Virus record (IMG/VR): IMGVR_UViG_2778261162_000009
Direction: 5' to 3' (one strand)
DNA length: 24,974 bases
From: a virus
Lineage: Duplodnaviria; Heunggongvirae; Uroviricota; Caudoviricetes
Of this stretch, positions 1 through 10,166 are shown piece after piece. Under the pieces are notes generated by a model that was not told where the DNA came from, did no database searches, and saw only the letters and a list, made by a program, of their open reading frames with translations. How positions within the stretch are numbered: the first letter of the stretch is position 1; each line of letters begins with the position of its first letter. The position numbers were made by a program, and so were the translations under genes.

Positions 1-1002
1 TTACCCTCTATTGTCAAAAGGGTTCAATTCAACAGCAGCCTCTAAATGACCTGGAGCAAAATGCGCATAACGCATAGTCATTTTTATATCGCTATGCCCC
101 AGTATTTTTTGCAACACAAGAATATTTCCGCCCCGCATCATAAAATGACTGGCAAACGTGTGACGTAGCACATGAGTTAATTGCCCATCAGGAAGCTCGA
201 TCTTCGCTCTCTTAATTGCAGCGTCAAAAGCCTCATAACATGGTGAAAATAGCGCTCCTCGTTTTTTAGGAAGCATAGCCTGCAATTGAGGTGAAATCGG
301 TACAGTGCGGTTCTTCTTTCCTTTAGTTTTAACAAATGTGATTCGACCGGGCAGTACTTGAGATTGCTTTAATCCTTCTGCTTCACTCCACCGAGCACCC
401 GTCGCAAGCCCAATACGGACAACAACCCCCAAATCTTTATTCCGTGACTCATCACACGCAATCAGAAGGCGCTCAATCTCATCTACATACAGAAACGCCA
501 GTTCCTTTTCTTCCTCACGAAACTTGCGAATACCAGTCAGGGGGTTTTCACCAGACCACTCCCCAAGGCGCTTCAGTTCGGCAAAAACAGCATGTAGATA
601 TGACTGCTCGCGATTAACGGTTGCTTCACTAAGTTTTTTCTTCCCCTTGGGATTCCATTCTCCTGATAGCCTTCTTTCCCGATAAGTAGCAAACATATTT
701 TTGTCAAACTGAGAAGCAAATGGATCTCCCAGCCTGGAACAAATCGCCTCAAGTTTGACTTTGCGCTCTGCACCAGAGGACAAGGTTTTACCGTACATCT
801 CAAACCAACGAGCAATCAACTCAGAAAGACGAGGACCAGAACCATCTTGAAACTCGTCTCCAACTCTACTATTCATTAAACGGCGCTCATAAGAGAGCGC
901 CTCACTTTTTGTCGCAAACTGTTTACGAATGCGTTTTCCCGATACCCCGTAGGGATAACATTCGCAAAGCCATTTACCTGATGGAATCTTACGAACCGAC
1001 AT
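1..1002 (-). CDS. int: Tyrosine-recombinase integrase (P2 Int family), 333 aa; stop codon sits at the window edge
   Basis: ORF translation has integrase-like C-terminal catalytic region (…HVLRHTFASHF…MRYAHF…); position next to the repressor as in P2/186 prophages. Confidence 0.88.
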   Translation of the reverse strand: MSVRKIPSGKWLCECYPYGVSGKRIRKQFATKSEALSYERRLMNSRVGDEFQDGSGPRLSELIARWFEMYGKTLSSGAERKVKLEAICSRLGDPFASQFDKNMFATYRERRLSGEWNPKGKKKLSEATVNREQSYLHAVFAELKRLGEWSGENPLTGIRKFREEEKELAFLYVDEIERLLIACDESRNKDLGVVVRIGLATGARWSEAEGLKQSQVLPGRITFVKTKGKKNRTVPISPQLQAMLPKKRGALFSPCYEAFDAAIKRAKIELPDGQLTHVLRHTFASHFMMRGGNILVLQKILGHSDIKMTMRYAHFAPGHLEAAVELNPFDNRG

Positions 1003-1007
1003 TTTAG

Positions 1008-1355
1008 TTACTTATCACATAAATCAAATGCAGCCTTAGTGACATCCCCCAGACTCTTTTTTAACCCTGGAGCGGCATCATTATCTAGCCAAAATGGATT
1101 ATTGTTATCTAACGGTAACGCACCAAATGTTTTACCTTTTATTCGAGCCAAACCTGTAAGTGCATATAACTTATTATCGTCAAAATTCATCACATAAGGA
1201 TTACCATCAAGACACTGTAATTGAACCTCATCAGTATTAAATGGCCATACCCCATTGAAACTCTCACGTTCAATAGTTTTAAAAGGCATTGCGACGGCGG
1301 AAAAAGAAAACATAGATAAAAAAGTAACTAATAGTTGAACCTTTTTTGCTTTCAT
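1008..1355 (-). CDS. Small secreted/periplasmic protein, 115 aa, unknown function (cargo gene)
   Basis: N-terminal signal peptide MKAKKVQLLVTFLSMFSFSAVA; two Cys in mature part; AT-rich; co-oriented with repressor operon; SD-like GAGG upstream. Confidence 0.6.
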   Translation of the reverse strand: MKAKKVQLLVTFLSMFSFSAVAMPFKTIERESFNGVWPFNTDEVQLQCLDGNPYVMNFDDNKLYALTGLARIKGKTFGALPLDNNNPFWLDNDAAPGLKKSLGDVTKAAFDLCDK

Positions 1356-1384
1356 ATCATTACCTCAATTTAGCTCAAGTAAGA

Positions 1385-2035
1385 TTACAAATTAAAAAAC
1401 GCCCTAGAAATGACACCGCCTACCAAAACCCCTACGCAGATAAAGAATATTATTTCTTTTGGATAAAGTCGGATTAATTCTGAAGCACGAAGTCGGACTT
1501 CTGGTAAGGTCGAACTCTCTGTGTGGCTTGATGCCGATTGTTGCTCTAACCACGACAATGCAGACTGTAACTGAGAACGAGTAAGATCGTTTAAACGTCC
1601 TGTACCGAAATTGATATGGCAATACCGCAGAAGTTTTTGTCGAAGTCCACAGTCTTCACTGTTACGTAGTAATAAACTTACAAGAGCCTTACAGGCATCA
1701 TGATCTTTACATCGCTCAAGCATTGCATGCAGAAAACTCTCCGCTGTTTTATATTGATTTACTGTCATATCATCAATACCAGCTACACCAATCTCCGCAT
1801 GTACTTTTTGCCAAATAATAAACGCTTCAGTATTGCTAGCTTCTGCAATAGCAGCAACCAAGCTATTTAGCTCCTTACGCTGAGCCTTAAGCAAAGGGCG
1901 ATCGTCATCATCATTATTCGAAGGGATTGCGATATTGACGGTATGAGAACCATCATATCGCTCTATCTGAATATTCTTTTCGTGAAAATCACGCCCAGCA
2001 ACGCGATTGTTTGAACCGTTTGAGTTGACGGCCAT
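1385..2035 (-). CDS. Tail-anchored membrane protein, 216 aa, unknown function (cargo gene)
   Basis: Soluble N-terminal domain then single C-terminal hydrophobic helix (IIFFICVGVLVGGVISRAFF); strong SD GGGAGGTG 5 nt before ATG; 16 bp after repressor stop. Confidence 0.6.
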   Translation of the reverse strand: MAVNSNGSNNRVAGRDFHEKNIQIERYDGSHTVNIAIPSNNDDDDRPLLKAQRKELNSLVAAIAEASNTEAFIIWQKVHAEIGVAGIDDMTVNQYKTAESFLHAMLERCKDHDACKALVSLLLRNSEDCGLRQKLLRYCHINFGTGRLNDLTRSQLQSALSWLEQQSASSHTESSTLPEVRLRASELIRLYPKEIIFFICVGVLVGGVISRAFFNL

Positions 2036-2050
2036 GTCACCTCCCTACTA

Positions 2051-2455
2051 TCACCTACCCTTAGTTTCGTTATAGTCACGACCAGCGATACGGTTATTAC
2101 CACCAGAAATATTTAACTCACGTCCTGATGGCTGAGTTTCCTTTTCACTGATCGCACCTTTTAAAGCCCCAATCACCGCGTTTTTCACATCTAACGAAGC
2201 TGCTCGAAAGCGAGTAATCAACTCCTGCTCATCATCGTTATAAGTTTCAGGTGAGTGAATTCCCAACACAACATACTGAACATCAAGGCCAAAACGAGAC
2301 AGCGCTGCCAAATACGCAGCATCAGGAAAGCTATCTCCTTTCTCATATCTAAGCTGAGTTAGCTTTTTGACTCCACCAATGTCGCTCATGGCAACTTGAC
2401 TAAGTCCCAATCTTTCCCTTTCCTCACGCAACCGCTGACCAATATCATTTTTCAT
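2051..2455 (-). CDS. XRE-family helix-turn-helix repressor, 134 aa (candidate immunity repressor, CI/C analogue)
   Basis: N-terminal HTH_XRE pattern (IGQRLREERERLGLSQVAMSDIGGVKKLTQLRYEKGDSFPDAAYLAALSRFGLDV); divergent from the rightward early operon. Confidence 0.75.
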   Translation of the reverse strand: MKNDIGQRLREERERLGLSQVAMSDIGGVKKLTQLRYEKGDSFPDAAYLAALSRFGLDVQYVVLGIHSPETYNDDEQELITRFRAASLDVKNAVIGALKGAISEKETQPSGRELNISGGNNRIAGRDYNETKGR

Positions 2456-2530
2456 ACAAAAACCTTGACAGGTATCTTTTTTGATACCAAAATGATTTCA
2501 CGAGCTATTAGATGATCACAATATACCACT
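2456..2530. promoter_or_regulatory. Divergent lysogeny/lytic switch region with TTGACA -35-like hexamer and perfect palindrome GGTATCTTTTTTGATACC (2471-2488)
   Basis: 75-bp gap between divergent repressor and early operon; TTGACA at 2465-2470; 6-bp inverted repeat arms seen directly. Confidence 0.45.
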
Positions 2531-2737
2531 ATGAAACAAGTTCTTCACGATACCAGATCACGCATTCCGCGTAACACCGCCACAGGTCCAAGACTGGCGC
2601 TTCGGCTGTCCCTCGAGGAGCGAGCCGTCATTGATGAAATGGCAGCTAAAGAACAACGCTCATCCTCTAACATGGCGCGCATGATCTTCCTTCGCGGCCT
2701 AGAGCTAACCCAGAAAGAACAAAACAAATCTTCCTGA
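2531..2737 (+). CDS. Small DNA-binding regulator, ribbon-helix-helix-like, 68 aa (first gene of early operon)
   Basis: RLALRLSLEERAVIDEMAAKEQRSSSNMARMIFLRGLE resembles CopG/MobC RHH fold; no clear SD. Confidence 0.45.
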   Translation: MKQVLHDTRSRIPRNTATGPRLALRLSLEERAVIDEMAAKEQRSSSNMARMIFLRGLELTQKEQNKSS

Positions 2738-2753
2738 TCAGGAGGCTAGTGGG

Positions 2754-2957
2754 ATGTCAGGTATAACCATCAATATCAATGTGGATGCCCCCTATGTATC
2801 CCTGCAGAAATATGCAGAGATAACAGGTATCCCTCTTAATACATGCAAAAGGATGTTGGCTGACGGTCGAATTATTATCCGCCCCAAACGCGCCAAAATG
2901 GAAAAGCCTGAAGTAAACCTTGTGGCGATGTTAAAAGACGCTTTGGCTAACAGCTAA
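2754..2957 (+). CDS. Cox/excisionase-like HTH protein, 67 aa
   Basis: APYVSLQKYAEITGIPLNTCKRMLADGRI resembles P2 Cox HTH segment; GGAGG SD 8 nt upstream. Confidence 0.55.
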   Translation: MSGITININVDAPYVSLQKYAEITGIPLNTCKRMLADGRIIIRPKRAKMEKPEVNLVAMLKDALANS

Positions 2958-2978
2958 AACAATGAACAGAGCACCATC

Positions 2979-3329
2979 ATGAAAAAAAACGCTAATAATC
3001 CATACTCCAAATTTCGTAATGGCGTAGAACGCCATGTACACCACGTCGCTACCAGTGCATCACGTAGTAACAGTCGCTATAACCTGAACGAGACGCACGC
3101 AACACCGGATGGCCACGCTGTAAAACAAATCGGCGAGCATGCCTGGCTGATTGAGAAAGCTGGAATCGTGGTCCACAAATGCCCACGCAATCCGTTTACC
3201 GGAAACCGCATTTTTGCATTGAACTGCGGCGACAATCACTTCGGGCAGGATTTCACATTATACGAAGCACTTCGCACGGTTGATCGTCTGCTTCGCGGGC
3301 AAAGTTTTATTAAACAGGCTGATTTATAA
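2979..3329 (+). CDS. Hypothetical early protein, 116 aa
   Basis: ORF in operon orientation, protein-like composition; weak RBS. Confidence 0.4.
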   Translation: MKKNANNPYSKFRNGVERHVHHVATSASRSNSRYNLNETHATPDGHAVKQIGEHAWLIEKAGIVVHKCPRNPFTGNRIFALNCGDNHFGQDFTLYEALRTVDRLLRGQSFIKQADL

Positions 3330-3339
3330 CAGGTGCTTT

Positions 3340-3618
3340 ATGACCAAAGAGCATGCACAAGGTGTATTTATCCGTTTTATTGATTTTCGCGGTGAACTGT
3401 TATTACGCGCATCAGCCATTGACGGAGTTGTTCCATCCGAAAAAAACGCAGCTACTTACGTTTATCTGAACGGTACGCGCCTGACTGTGGAGCTTCCGTA
3501 CCAGACCGTACGAGAAATCATTAGCGAAGCTGAAAAGGCACGTCAGGTTAATGGCGATGAACCCTATATCGAAATTATTTGTATGGATTCAGAAGCTGAA
3601 ATTCAGAAAGCAGATTAA
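3340..3618 (+). CDS. Hypothetical early protein, 92 aa
   Basis: ATG at 3340 preceded by AGGTG; longer track ORF start at 3280 overlaps previous gene. Confidence 0.5.
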   Translation: MTKEHAQGVFIRFIDFRGELLLRASAIDGVVPSEKNAATYVYLNGTRLTVELPYQTVREIISEAEKARQVNGDEPYIEIICMDSEAEIQKAD

Positions 3619-3629
3619 AGGGCGTTGCG

Positions 3630-3872
3630 ATGGGCAAAGAATATAAAACTCTCATTAACAAAGCACTTGAACGATTTTATTTTCGCTTAAGTGCATCAGG
3701 CGCTCATGCTGAACATGCAGCCCGTGACTCATTGACCAGGGCAATCCGGAGTTTGTATGACGTTGCTTTTTACGCTGATGATCTGGATGCACTGAACGAA
3801 CTTTCCGAGCTGATCTGTGCCGCAGAATGCGGGGAACACATTGAACCGTATAAGCTGGGGAATATCGCATGA
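3630..3872 (+). CDS. Hypothetical early protein, 80 aa
   Basis: ORF with upstream AAAGGG; operon orientation. Confidence 0.5.
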   Translation: MGKEYKTLINKALERFYFRLSASGAHAEHAARDSLTRAIRSLYDVAFYADDLDALNELSELICAAECGEHIEPYKLGNIA

Positions 3873-3982
3873 GTATATTTATCTCATGGCTTGTTCTGAT
3901 TATTTCGGTGGCCTGCGCCATTGGGATTATGCGAATTATTCATTCAGTAAAAAAGATTGAACGCTTTTTCACTGACGAATAA
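3869..3982 (+). CDS. Small hydrophobic peptide, 37 aa, single predicted TM helix
   Basis: ATGA start/stop overlap with upstream gene; sequence MSIFISWLVLIISVACAIGIMRIIHSVKKIERFFTDE; below ORF-track length cutoff. Confidence 0.35.
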   Translation: MSIFISWLVLIISVACAIGIMRIIHSVKKIERFFTDE

Positions 3983-4074
3983 CAGCTTAAACAAAACACC
4001 AGATTAAACCCGAAAACCTGAAAACCATCCGCATTCGCGGAGGTATTCGCACACGTAAATAACGGAGATATAAA

Positions 4075-4491
4075 ATGAACGCAAAAGAAAAAAATATTAT
4101 CAATACATTAAAAATAGTGTCAGCAGAGCAAGACAAGCTGTCCAGGGCAGCCCAGAAAGATAATCAACATATGGCAGCGCTTTACGCACTGACCATCGCA
4201 ATAGCCACCTCTGAAGCAGCCAAAGTTATTGAGGAACAGAGCAAAGAAATCGACACTCTGAAAACACAGTCAACAGTTGCAGCCATGAATCCGTCCAGCA
4301 TTGGACGCTGCATTTATATTCTTGGTTCAGCAATGATGCTGCAATACACCATTATTGCCGAACTGCACGGCAAATACCTGATAACGCCTTACCACACAAA
4401 AGAGTCAGAGCTTCTGACAAATCTCCGCCTGATAGAACGCTCTCAAGCTGTATTCATTGATGACGCGCAACGTGCCGTATTTAACGCATAG
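4075..4491 (+). CDS. Hypothetical early protein, 138 aa
   Basis: GGAG SD 7 nt upstream of ATG; clean ORF. Confidence 0.55.
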   Translation: MNAKEKNIINTLKIVSAEQDKLSRAAQKDNQHMAALYALTIAIATSEAAKVIEEQSKEIDTLKTQSTVAAMNPSSIGRCIYILGSAMMLQYTIIAELHGKYLITPYHTKESELLTNLRLIERSQAVFIDDAQRAVFNA

Positions 4492-4514
4492 GGTTACTGG
4501 ACAAAGGGGGCGCA

Positions 4515-9206: not shown

Positions 9207-10166
9207 ATGAAAATTTGTATCGACGACGGCTCCACCAACATCAAGCTGGCATGGACTGAGAACGGCAAACGCCGCAACGCCATCAGCCCGAACAGCTTCA
9301 AGTCGGAATGGTCTGCGCCGTTCGGTGGCACGCAGCCCGCGAACTACATGCTTGATGGCGTGCGCTATGGCTTTGATCCGGTCAGCGATCGCTTTGTCCA
9401 GACGACCGACACGCAATACCAGTACAGCGATGTGAATGTCATTGCCATTCATCACGCGCTGGTCAAATCAGGCATCACGCCACAGGAGGTGGATGTGGTT
9501 GTCACCCTGCCACTGAGCGAGTATTTCGACACAAACGCACAGCCGGACATGGCCAACATCAGCCGCAAAAAAGCGAACGTTATGCGCCCGGTGGAGTACC
9601 AGAACGGCGAAGCATTCACTATCCGTAACGTACGGGTTATGCCTGAATCCATTCCGGCTGGCTTTAAGGCACTGGCTGACATGAGTCCGTTTGAATCCCT
9701 GCTGATTGTGGATTTGGGCGGAACCACGCTGGATGTGGCAAAGGTTCAGGGGCAACTGGCAGGTATTAGCCAGGTGTTTTGCGATCCACACGTAGGCGTT
9801 TCTCTGATGGCCGATGCCGTACTGTCGGTGATGGCCACTAACGGTATGCGTACCAGTCACCACATCGCCAATACCATTATCGAACATCGCCATGATGAAG
9901 CCTGGCTGCGCCAGCACATCCACAATGACGCGCATTACGCCAGCCTGATGGCGGTTATTCGTGAAAAGGAAGAAACACTGAAACAACGCGTGATCCGCGC
10001 GCTGGCGGTTTTTTCGGGTTACGGGCGGGTGATGGTTGTCGGTGGCGGGGCGGAGATTGTGGCACCCGCTATCCGCGAAGCCTGCGGAGTTAATGCGACT
10101 TTCATCGCGGACGGGGTGCCACAGTTTGCTCTGGTTAATGGGCTGTACGCAATGGACAAGGAGTAA
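9207..10166 (+). CDS. parM: ParM/StbA-like actin-type ATPase, 319 aa
   Basis: Strong resemblance to plasmid R1 ParM from memory: MKICIDDGSTNIKLAW, SPNSF, YSDVNV…HHAL, VMPESIPAG, DLGGTTLD, VGGGAE, LVNG. Confidence 0.85.
   Translation: MKICIDDGSTNIKLAWTENGKRRNAISPNSFKSEWSAPFGGTQPANYMLDGVRYGFDPVSDRFVQTTDTQYQYSDVNVIAIHHALVKSGITPQEVDVVVTLPLSEYFDTNAQPDMANISRKKANVMRPVEYQNGEAFTIRNVRVMPESIPAGFKALADMSPFESLLIVDLGGTTLDVAKVQGQLAGISQVFCDPHVGVSLMADAVLSVMATNGMRTSHHIANTIIEHRHDEAWLRQHIHNDAHYASLMAVIREKEETLKQRVIRALAVFSGYGRVMVVGGGAEIVAPAIREACGVNATFIADGVPQFALVNGLYAMDKE

Follow-up and report, generated by a model that had tools for sequence, protein, structure and literature searches.

A prophage immunity repressor and its tail-anchored Flk_N-domain neighbour carry a matching, co-varying terminal motif

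Why should two small genes lie between the integrase and the immunity repressor of a P2-type prophage? The question is raised by IMG/VR virus record IMGVR_UViG_2778261162_000009, a Caudoviricetes sequence of 24,974 nucleotides (nt) that was analysed as a whole (the window) and whose backbone is that of a P88-like (Xuanwuvirus) P2-type prophage. Its left end holds four minus-strand open reading frames (ORFs), namely int at 1-1002, a gene for a 115-amino-acid (aa) protein at 1008-1355, a gene for a 216-aa protein at 1385-2035 and a gene for a helix-turn-helix (HTH) protein at 2051-2455; in phage P88 nothing but a 66-nt gap separates int from C. An earlier note on this DNA had taken the two extra genes for cargo riding in the repressor operon, a candidate exclusion or abortive-infection pair in the manner of lambda rexAB. 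We confirm the observation and find the interpretation half right. Judged by gene order and sequence comparison, the repressor and the 216-aa protein make up a conserved two-gene immunity cassette that has not been described before, and the two proteins carry matching motifs at the ends by which their genes face each other. The features on which this answer is built are the following.

1385-2035, minus strand: 216-aa tail-anchored Flk_N-domain protein, putative repressor partner (phrog_5825, 4e-103; PF27202 on homologues)
1976-2029, minus strand: N-terminal motif of the partner, residues 3-20, VNSNGSNNRVAGRDFHEK, matching the repressor tail
1526-1903, minus strand: predicted Flk_N helical core of the partner, residues 45-170, two three-helix units
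1391-1462, minus strand: C-terminal transmembrane tail anchor of the partner, residues 192-215 (hydrophobic stretch and predicted helix)
2051-2455, minus strand: 134-aa HTH-XRE immunity repressor (HTH_31, HTH_19 and HTH_3 in Pfam; phrog_8, phrog_4 and phrog_3)
2066-2116, minus strand: C-terminal tail motif of the repressor, residues 114-130, LNISGGNNRIAGRDYNE, followed by the basic end TKGR

The repressor matches the N-terminal domain of P22 C2 (E-value 0.011) and is oriented divergently from Arc-like and Cox-like early genes. The same arrangement recurs in all nine species genomes recovered, where the Flk_N gene adjoins an HTH repressor facing Arc-like or Cox-like genes and the gene between Flk_N and int differs from genome to genome. 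Among about 160 collected loci the Flk_N gene stands directly downstream of the repressor in almost all, usually after a gap of 0-22 nt. Distant family members too (25-35% identity; from Pseudomonas, Silvimonas and metagenome contigs) follow an HTH repressor, and several of these pairs belong to Mu-like prophages, where they lie beside an rve transposase, Mu Gp27 or a Mu-type holin/SLT lysis cluster and there is no tyrosine integrase. Enterobacterales, Pseudomonas and a betaproteobacterium thus have the pair in prophages of the P2-like or the Mu-like type, and its presence in both types suggests that it travels as a cassette between unrelated kinds of temperate phage. The earlier proposal of a membrane effector and an exported protein acting as one module does not survive this comparison, as the 216-aa gene is kept whatever the next slot holds, even in Mu-like phages. 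Conversely, a homologous repressor that lacks the tail (P0316, 119 aa) has no Flk_N partner. This P2-like repressor is present on hundreds of contigs, and at one such locus (L180:3501-4632) the genes after it encode a 117-aa zinc-ribbon-like protein, a 140-aa protein with a coiled coil and a tail anchor, and the integrase, so that a tail-anchored protein behind the repressor recurs with unrelated sequences. Our literature searches returned no paper containing the protein accessions or the term Flk_N, and none describing the cassette.

What the two proteins have in common is a Gly/Val/Asn-rich motif of about 17-25 aa, located in the C-terminal tail of the repressor and at the N-terminus of the partner. 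In the window the repressor ends ...LNISGGNNRIAGRDYNETKGR and the partner starts MAVNSNGSNNRVAGRDFHEK..., and the motif occurs nowhere else, no third gene bearing it having been found there. Residues N10, R11, G14, R15 and D16 of the partner motif are invariant in the close family, and the tail motif is kept, in several classes, among the repressor homologues. Both copies lie in segments predicted to be disordered next to confidently modelled domains: in AlphaFold2 models the predicted local distance difference test score (pLDDT) is about 50 for the partner motif and 40-47 for repressor residues 107-134, which follow a predicted HTH domain (5-64) and helices (74-106). Six-frame translations of the loci of the NR class contain the motif exactly twice in 160 of 167 cases, and the copies that were read are a repressor C-terminus and a partner N-terminus. 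Seven loci belong to other motif classes, and there both partners carry the same alternative class (QQFNGPVGTVTTGDVVN with QQFHGAVEQVAAGDIKN, VVHGDVGQTVKGNVTIEGG with IIHGDVGIVAEGDVIQNNS, and GGEFAARDIVNHG with DGQFAGRDIVNNI, for instance).

This co-variation was quantified on 20 pairs with less than 50% core identity. Cognate tails and N-termini scored 48.7 on average as compared to 32.7 for non-cognate combinations, and none of 20,000 permutations reached the observed mean. Nineteen of the pairs gave local motif alignments with scores of 35-62 over 9-29 aa, at least 17 aa in 16 of the 19; the twentieth (L119, score 17) is an artefact of ORF picking. At the nucleotide level the paired motifs are 47-69% identical, and codons differ at 98 of the 183 identical residues. 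This rules out gene conversion as the source of the likeness, since more than half of the identical residues are written in different codons, and it argues that the likeness is kept by selection on the peptide. Fusion of the two proteins by read-through or frameshifting was likewise considered and rejected: the ORFs do share a reading frame, but they are separated by three consecutive in-frame stops (TGA TAG TAG) plus two codons, and no fused HTH-Flk_N protein is among the homologue matches listed. Together with the retention of the 216-aa gene next to the repressor whatever the slot holds, the co-varying terminal motif places this gene in the immunity module rather than among the cargo.

The motif is not confined to the Flk_N family. 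Two IMG/VR contigs (3300009403_000035 and 3300036770_004908; L124, 2100-3642, and L135, 2007-3642) carry three motif-bearing genes in a row, encoding a repressor with the tail motif, a 154-aa protein and the Flk_N protein. The 154-aa protein is unrelated to the others, with a CxxC...CxxC pattern and two transmembrane helices, and has the same N-terminal motif; in L124 it even has the rare variant AGHT(F/Y)NE in common with its repressor. The presence of the motif on an unrelated protein with two transmembrane helices suggests that it is a portable tag.

The partner itself is anchored by its tail, as had been noted earlier: it ends in a hydrophobic stretch, the last 22 or so residues being hydrophobic in all members of the 216-aa family, and the AlphaFold2 model (43 sequences; mean pLDDT 85.8) places a confident helix at 192-215 on this stretch, a core at 45-170 with pLDDT 96-98 and a first 40 residues of low confidence. 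The protein had not been recognised before, nor had the 115-aa protein, but profile searches place both, the latter in DUF2511/YebY and the former in Flk_N (PF27202, phrog_5825). Profile-profile comparison with hhalign aligns its residues 3-168 to the first half of Flk (99.5% probability, E-value 2.8e-22). The NCBIfam Flk model matches at an E-value of 8.6e-16 and 58.1 bits, where the equivalog cut-off is 353, and does so in part, residues 37-166 covering profile positions 20-149 of 339. By these matches the 216-aa protein is a Flk_N homologue and not a full-length Flk equivalog. An exhaustive search of 1.8 billion representatives returned only 92 relatives, mostly tail-anchored proteins of 190-230 aa and also Flk proteins of 320-410 aa, and some family members carry a periplasmic domain or extra transmembrane segments past the anchor (P0147, P0172 and P0153). 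In structure comparison the Flk_N units come close to three-helix modules known from phage recombination proteins, one match, 8tfu, being the C-terminal domain of Red-beta with the C-terminal peptide of SSB bound. A sequence search of the PDB with the family gave nothing useful, and Foldseek against viral structures gave weak matches only (E-value above 0.01: ORF6C, the RecT C-terminus, Bro-N and a 'regulatory protein'). Over long distances pN, the proportion of non-synonymous differences, is 0.20-0.30 for the partner and DUF2511 genes as against a saturated synonymous pS of 0.70-0.84.

How might such a pair work? Peptides that must resemble rather than complement each other point either to homotypic pairing or to reading by a shared third factor, and we favour direct pairing because it needs no third co-varying component and because no third copy of the motif and no conserved third gene were found. 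We propose that, through the motifs, the repressor is coupled to a partner in the inner membrane by which the lysogeny switch is modulated, a proposal whose chances of being right or wrong we regard as evenly balanced. The flexible tail of the repressor and the flexible N-terminus of the partner would pair homotypically, strand to strand, by virtue of their likeness, and some of the repressor molecules would thereby be drawn to the inner membrane on its cytoplasmic side. Tethered to that membrane, the partner would serve the switch as a modulator or sensor, standing to the repressor roughly as an anti-sigma factor does to its sigma factor, and the family members with extra periplasmic or membrane parts would fit a sensing role. 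In which direction the partner regulates, and with what outcome, is a matter of speculation.

Several points weigh against this proposal. Physical contact of the two motifs is something that we infer from their sequences. With both proteins coming from one operon, a partner that bound all the time would deplete the repressor, which only conditional binding or a skewed stoichiometry could prevent. A scan of positions 900-3100 did not identify a leftward promoter, the sole minus-strand promoter-like site in it being a weak one within the 115-aa gene. Two of the three locus scans used search patterns derived from the motif, which biases the counts for the NR class towards it, and the protein-based look-ups therefore carry more weight. 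Repressor and partner are sometimes separated by inserted genes (L177, L125/L146), and in one pair, the only one of its kind (L178, 2570-3675, on a contig of the Pseudomonas syringae group), the repressor is without the tail motif; its Flk_N protein has a helical N-terminal extension of about 30 residues ahead of a degenerate motif, which is possibly a different solution to the coupling. Finally, dN/dS of the partner is 0.3-1.3 among 96-99% identical E. coli alleles (L044, L049, L051 and L055), a range based on very few substitutions, while the equally small counts for the same alleles give 0.08-0.26 for the DUF2511 gene and 0-0.23 for the repressor; this could be due to chance, or to selection on the partner that is relaxed or diversifying within E. 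coli. Other apparent exceptions to the repressor-tail rule (L106/107, L124/135, L125/146 and L155/167) were dismissed as ORF-picking errors or inserted genes.

A more specific version of the coupling holds that the two motifs signal by prion-like, cross-beta pairing, in the way of HET-S/NWD2 or Bab/Agp, and that this signalling has been wired into the lysogeny switch. Clustering of the membrane partner, set off by envelope damage, an incoming phage or, in members with extra domains, a periplasmic cue, would template the repressor tail into an ordered aggregate, and the outcome would be a switch-like loss of immunity, or else the signal would flow the other way. The composition of the motif (G 16%, V 11.7%, N 10.3%, Q 4%, K 3.6%, L 1.8% and P 0.8%, with many charged R, D and E residues) can be set beside that of known amyloid motifs, as discussed below; against the HET-s prion domain the motif scored no better in alignment than its shuffled versions, which amounts to no significant similarity. 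We consider this version unlikely, if tenable. If it were true, an amyloid-type signal would for the first time be seen to act on a transcription factor and to decide prophage induction, and it would reside on a mobile cassette common to P2-like and Mu-like phages.

Instead of binding each other, the two motifs might both dock onto one co-evolving factor, such as an antirepressor or derepression protein or a protease, with the membrane protein serving as a decoy or buffer that sets the threshold of induction. Two peptides that look alike are just what mimicry of a single ligand would produce, the motif can be carried by another membrane protein, and a 'derepression protein' is annotated in the early operon of an O157:H7 copy of the prophage. 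Such docking would call for a third partner that co-varies across P2-like and Mu-like phages, yet the motif counts given above, in the window as in the 160 loci of the NR class, leave no further copy to assign to it, and a conserved host protease cannot explain several lineage-specific motif classes. We therefore hold shared docking to be quite unlikely and return to direct coupling as the preferred reading.

The arrangement also recalls a type II toxin-antitoxin system, in which an HTH-XRE protein with a disordered C-terminal tail is followed after 0-22 nt by its partner. The tail-anchored protein would harm the membrane and the repressor tail would neutralise it, so that loss of the repressor would kill or halt the cell and the prophage would be stabilised or infection aborted. 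That the cassette is intact, at 99.7% identity, in a decayed O157:H7 prophage and that another tail-anchored protein comes after the repressor relative without a tail would both accord with addiction. Small pore-forming toxins are built differently from the 216-aa protein, however, most of which is predicted to be a well-folded, soluble helical domain held by one tail anchor; its Pfam, NCBIfam and PADLOC matches include no toxin or antitoxin family; and its homologue Flk is not known to be toxic (PMC13344023). These properties make an addiction module improbable.

If the 216-aa gene belongs with the repressor, what remains of the cargo is the 115-aa gene and the place in which it sits. The remaining features of the left end are as follows.

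1-1002, minus strand: tyrosine integrase, 333 aa, last gene of the leftward string (Int_N 5e-32 and Phage_integrase 2.5e-22 in Pfam; phrog_1)
1008-1355, minus strand: 115-aa YebY/DUF2511-family protein, predicted to be exported, variable-slot moron (PF10709, phrog_2950)
2456-2530, no strand: switch region of 75 nt between repressor and early operon, with a promoter-like site and an inverted repeat
2531-2737, plus strand: Arc-like ribbon-helix-helix early gene (phrog_3431, 1e-28), kept in related loci
2754-2957, plus strand: Cox-like excisionase/repressor (phrog_575, 1.3e-27)

The 115-aa protein matches PF10709 with 28.4 bits (cut-off 21), its residues 28-113 covering positions 2-87 of the 87 in the profile, and is a member of phrog_2950 (1.7e-39). 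Aligned to E. coli YebY (7n0j) it keeps C48 and C113, both cysteines of the disulfide, and phmmer against 7n0j (E-value 0.003) marks it as a distant homologue; in YebY two strictly conserved cysteines form the Cys48-Cys113 disulfide (PMC8689200). Its N-terminus, MKAKK followed by a hydrophobic core and AVA|M, reads by eye as a Sec-type signal peptide, and the protein is accordingly predicted to be exported to the periplasm. The neighbours of the gene are int and the Flk_N gene, the canonical AZY (copC/copD) operon context being absent. On these alignments and neighbours the protein is a member of the DUF2511 family and not a YebY orthologue. That homologues of YebY lie between a XerD-type recombinase and a CI repressor in Enterobacteriaceae has already been noted (PMC8689200). 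PADLOC matched no defence model to either the 115-aa or the 216-aa protein. The 115-aa protein would likely provide protection of the lysogen at the level of the envelope, for example exclusion or immunity to a toxin; we know of no exclusion phenotype for DUF2511 proteins.

The place of this gene is indeed variable, and here our comparison of relatives agrees with the earlier expectation. Measured in 62 dereplicated related loci whose sequence extends as far as int, the gap between the 216-aa homologue and int is anywhere from 77 to 2,653 nt. The slot is occupied by DUF2511 in some lineages only and elsewhere by BRCT-domain proteins (about 290-400 aa), Abi_alpha, an AAA_15/AAA_21 ATPase that comes with a 172-aa partner, a VasI-like exported protein or a 244-aa membrane protein, while in some loci no ORF was called. 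A Mu-like relative has a gene for a TIR (TIR_2) protein two genes further downstream. Most of the genes noted in or near the slot (L007:6635-7513, L138, L140, L161, L114, L121 and L175:3990-4862) are not recognised defence systems. The cI-int interval of K139-like Vibrio phages is a described defence hotspot (PMC9122126), and a minor hotspot from int to the primase gene has been described in P2-like prophages (PMC13586616). As the slot elsewhere holds recognisable defence-type or other exchangeable genes, the 115-aa gene is best read as hotspot cargo: by this comparison it is a separate, exchangeable moron beside int, ordinary cargo of a known kind, and the moron or defence hotspot is limited to the int-proximal slot. 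The word cargo thus fits the 115-aa gene, and not the 216-aa gene, which is conserved beside its type of repressor.

The G+C content (GC) of the 115-aa gene is 35.3%, and 25.9% at third codon positions (GC3), which puts it in the lowest 0.6% of equal-sized windows; the 216-aa gene (41.3%) falls in the lowest 6%. Both genes are low in GC, as had been seen before, but GC draws no line between cargo and backbone: the remainder of the window has 54.1%, and the repressor with 44.0%, int with 45.0% and the early region 2531-4500 with 45.1% fall well short of that too, so that low GC is a mark of the whole lysogeny and early region. The only real outlier is the 115-aa gene.

We can now weigh the view from which this work started, in which both genes are independent cargo, a rexAB-like pair for exclusion or abortive infection. 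On that view the likeness of the motifs would be a leftover without function, from the splitting of a gene or from a local duplication. The view has on its side the co-orientation and tight spacing behind the repressor, the low GC, the defence-type genes that relatives hold in the neighbouring slot, and the common frame of the repressor and 216-aa ORFs with three stop codons between them. Against it, DUF2511 accompanies the 216-aa gene in a subset of lineages only, the 216-aa gene tracks the type of repressor and not the slot, no fused protein was seen among the matches listed, and a relic would not co-vary over pairs of 25-30% identity while synonymous sites diverge. We judge it very improbable.

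Just as slender are the chances of a Flk-like lysogenic conversion, in which the prophage protein would act on a flagellar or locus of enterocyte effacement (LEE) type III export gate and alter motility or secretion: homology to the N-terminal half of Flk is clear, the tail-anchored topology is the same and Flk holds the flagellar export apparatus in its early mode, possibly via FlhA-C (PMC13344023), but the NCBIfam score of 58 against 353 bits covers one of Flk's two halves only, the family occurs in Pseudomonas and Silvimonas prophages as well, and the repressor-matched motif is left unexplained.

The descent of Flk is another matter. All relatives seen to bear the name 'flagella biosynthesis regulator' are from enteric species, and host Flk looks like a duplicated relative of the prophage family, which is found in Enterobacterales, Pseudomonas and Silvimonas. 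The wider spread among prophages, the restriction of Flk names to enterics and this duplicated look indicate that Flk is possibly a domesticated phage protein, and suggest that a host flagellar regulator derives from, or shares ancestry with, a phage protein family.

The transcriptional layout of the window is compatible with the cassette being expressed in the lysogen. The stop codon of the repressor gene and the ATG of the 216-aa gene are 15 nt apart (16 had been given), the spacer from the 216-aa stop to the 115-aa ATG is 29 nt as previously counted, and 5 nt separate the 115-aa stop from the ATG of int. Both Shine-Dalgarno sequences reported before are present, GGAGG 5 nt ahead of the 216-aa ATG and GAGG 7 nt ahead of the 115-aa ATG. 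The scan of 900-3100 returned no terminator-like site, which together with the tight spacers makes a single leftward transcription unit plausible. Co-transcription of the repressor, 216-aa and 115-aa genes in the lysogen, which had been proposed to start from the repressor promoter, is thus plausible as regards the layout. In the switch region a rightward promoter-like site, TTGACA-17-CAAAAT at 2465-2493, faces the Arc-like and Cox-like genes, and an imperfect inverted repeat spans 2444-2462/2478-2496. The early operon opens with the Arc-like ribbon-helix-helix gene and then the Cox-like gene, where P88 has one Cox-type regulator only; in the RefSeq annotation of O157:H7 the Arc-like ORF is uncalled and a 45-aa hypothetical protein is called on the opposite strand instead (window 2545-2727, minus strand). 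To the right of the early genes follow gpA, ParM and the portal gene. The full ParM/StbA actin-like segregation gene (9207-10166, plus strand) comes right after gpA, between gpA and the portal gene, where P2-like phages have a known hotspot, and in the O157:H7 prophage copy there is also a 'plasmid partitioning/stability' gene next to it.

The module is common in E. coli. Comparison with 5,426 complete E. coli genomes finds the same 1.46-kb segment in 521, about a tenth, and in 479 of these at 99% identity or more, so that strains for further work are at hand. O157:H7 is frequent among the sampled segment-carrying genomes; in the one O157:H7 genome examined, the segment lies beside yecA inside a decayed prophage with insertion sequence (IS) insertions and frameshifted tail genes, the copy whose intact cassette was mentioned above. 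In this copy a serine O-acetyltransferase gene (L183:14969-15541) stands amid the tail genes, by IS elements and a frameshifted tape-measure gene. Papers on CP-933T expression do not resolve the 115-aa or 216-aa genes. Among 50,697 GenBank phage records, relatives of the 216-aa protein occur only in phage 520873 and three Ralstonia phages. Phage 520873 (L001, NC_049344.1, 1039-3080) is the only GenBank phage record with this module; it matches the 216-aa homologue in three pieces, unannotated, its DUF2511 gene is unannotated too, and int is given as two fragments. The record has the look of a damaged copy of a prophage.

How P2-like and Mu-like prophages without RecA-cleavable repressors decide between staying and leaving is only partly understood. 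What is new here is a conserved partner of a widespread type of repressor, with a lineage-specific address label, and this offers a concrete handle on the question, consisting of two short motifs and one gene. It is the repressor-partner cassette and not the cargo idea that merits following up. The Abi_alpha, BRCT and ATPase genes that the int-proximal slot holds elsewhere are candidate defence genes.

Among known systems, the genes of the interval can be compared with five. Flk (RflH/Fluke) of Salmonella and E. coli has the homologous Flk_N helical domain facing the cytoplasm on a C-terminal tail anchor, but is a chromosomal protein of about 333 aa with two Flk_N-like halves and a flagellar role. 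The prophage protein corresponds to one half, always adjoins a repressor and carries the motif, whereas Flk sequences are without NRxAGRD. The 115-aa protein resembles YebY of the E. coli AZY operon and MlbQ, known from lantibiotic self-resistance, in belonging to DUF2511, in its predicted export, in both disulfide cysteines and in a Trp near the start of the fold; it differs from YebY as a distant homologue whose gene has no copC/copD neighbours. Like lambda rexAB and glo of Vibrio phage K139, which lies between cI and int, the genes of the window are placed behind an immunity repressor and beside int. The glo gene encodes a periplasmic protein and has been called the immunity gene of its family (PMC4870250). 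The glo precedent and the cI-int hotspot layout fit the 115-aa gene and its slot, the difference being that no PADLOC defence model matches either protein, Rex and Glo themselves not having been compared.

Transcription factors may also be controlled by membrane-anchored antagonists that are co-transcribed with them, as in anti-sigma factors of the sigma-E/RseA type, or be held at the membrane, as Mlc is by PtsG. The cassette resembles the RseA type in that a regulator gene is followed by that of a single-pass membrane partner with a cytoplasmic N-terminal part. It differs in that sequence and fold are unrelated, the regulator is a prophage repressor and the proposed contact would join two like motifs, both predicted to be disordered, with no folded anti-sigma domain. 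A further parallel is with amyloid signalling pairs, such as HET-S/NWD2 of fungi, the BASS motifs of bacteria and Bab/Agp of E. coli (bioRxiv 10.1101/2024.11.07.622273), the last of which lies in prophage hotspots. As in those pairs, two collinear adjacent genes here share a motif of about 17-25 aa, which stands at the C-terminus of the first product and the N-terminus of the second, differs between lineages, matches within the pair and is portable to other domains; its composition, with much G, V and N and little L, P or K, recalls what has been reported for BASS motifs. Gln is not enriched here. And where amyloid pairs join an NLR or TPR sensor to a pore-former of the Bell or HeLo type, the pair described here would join a DNA-binding repressor to a tail-anchored Flk_N protein.

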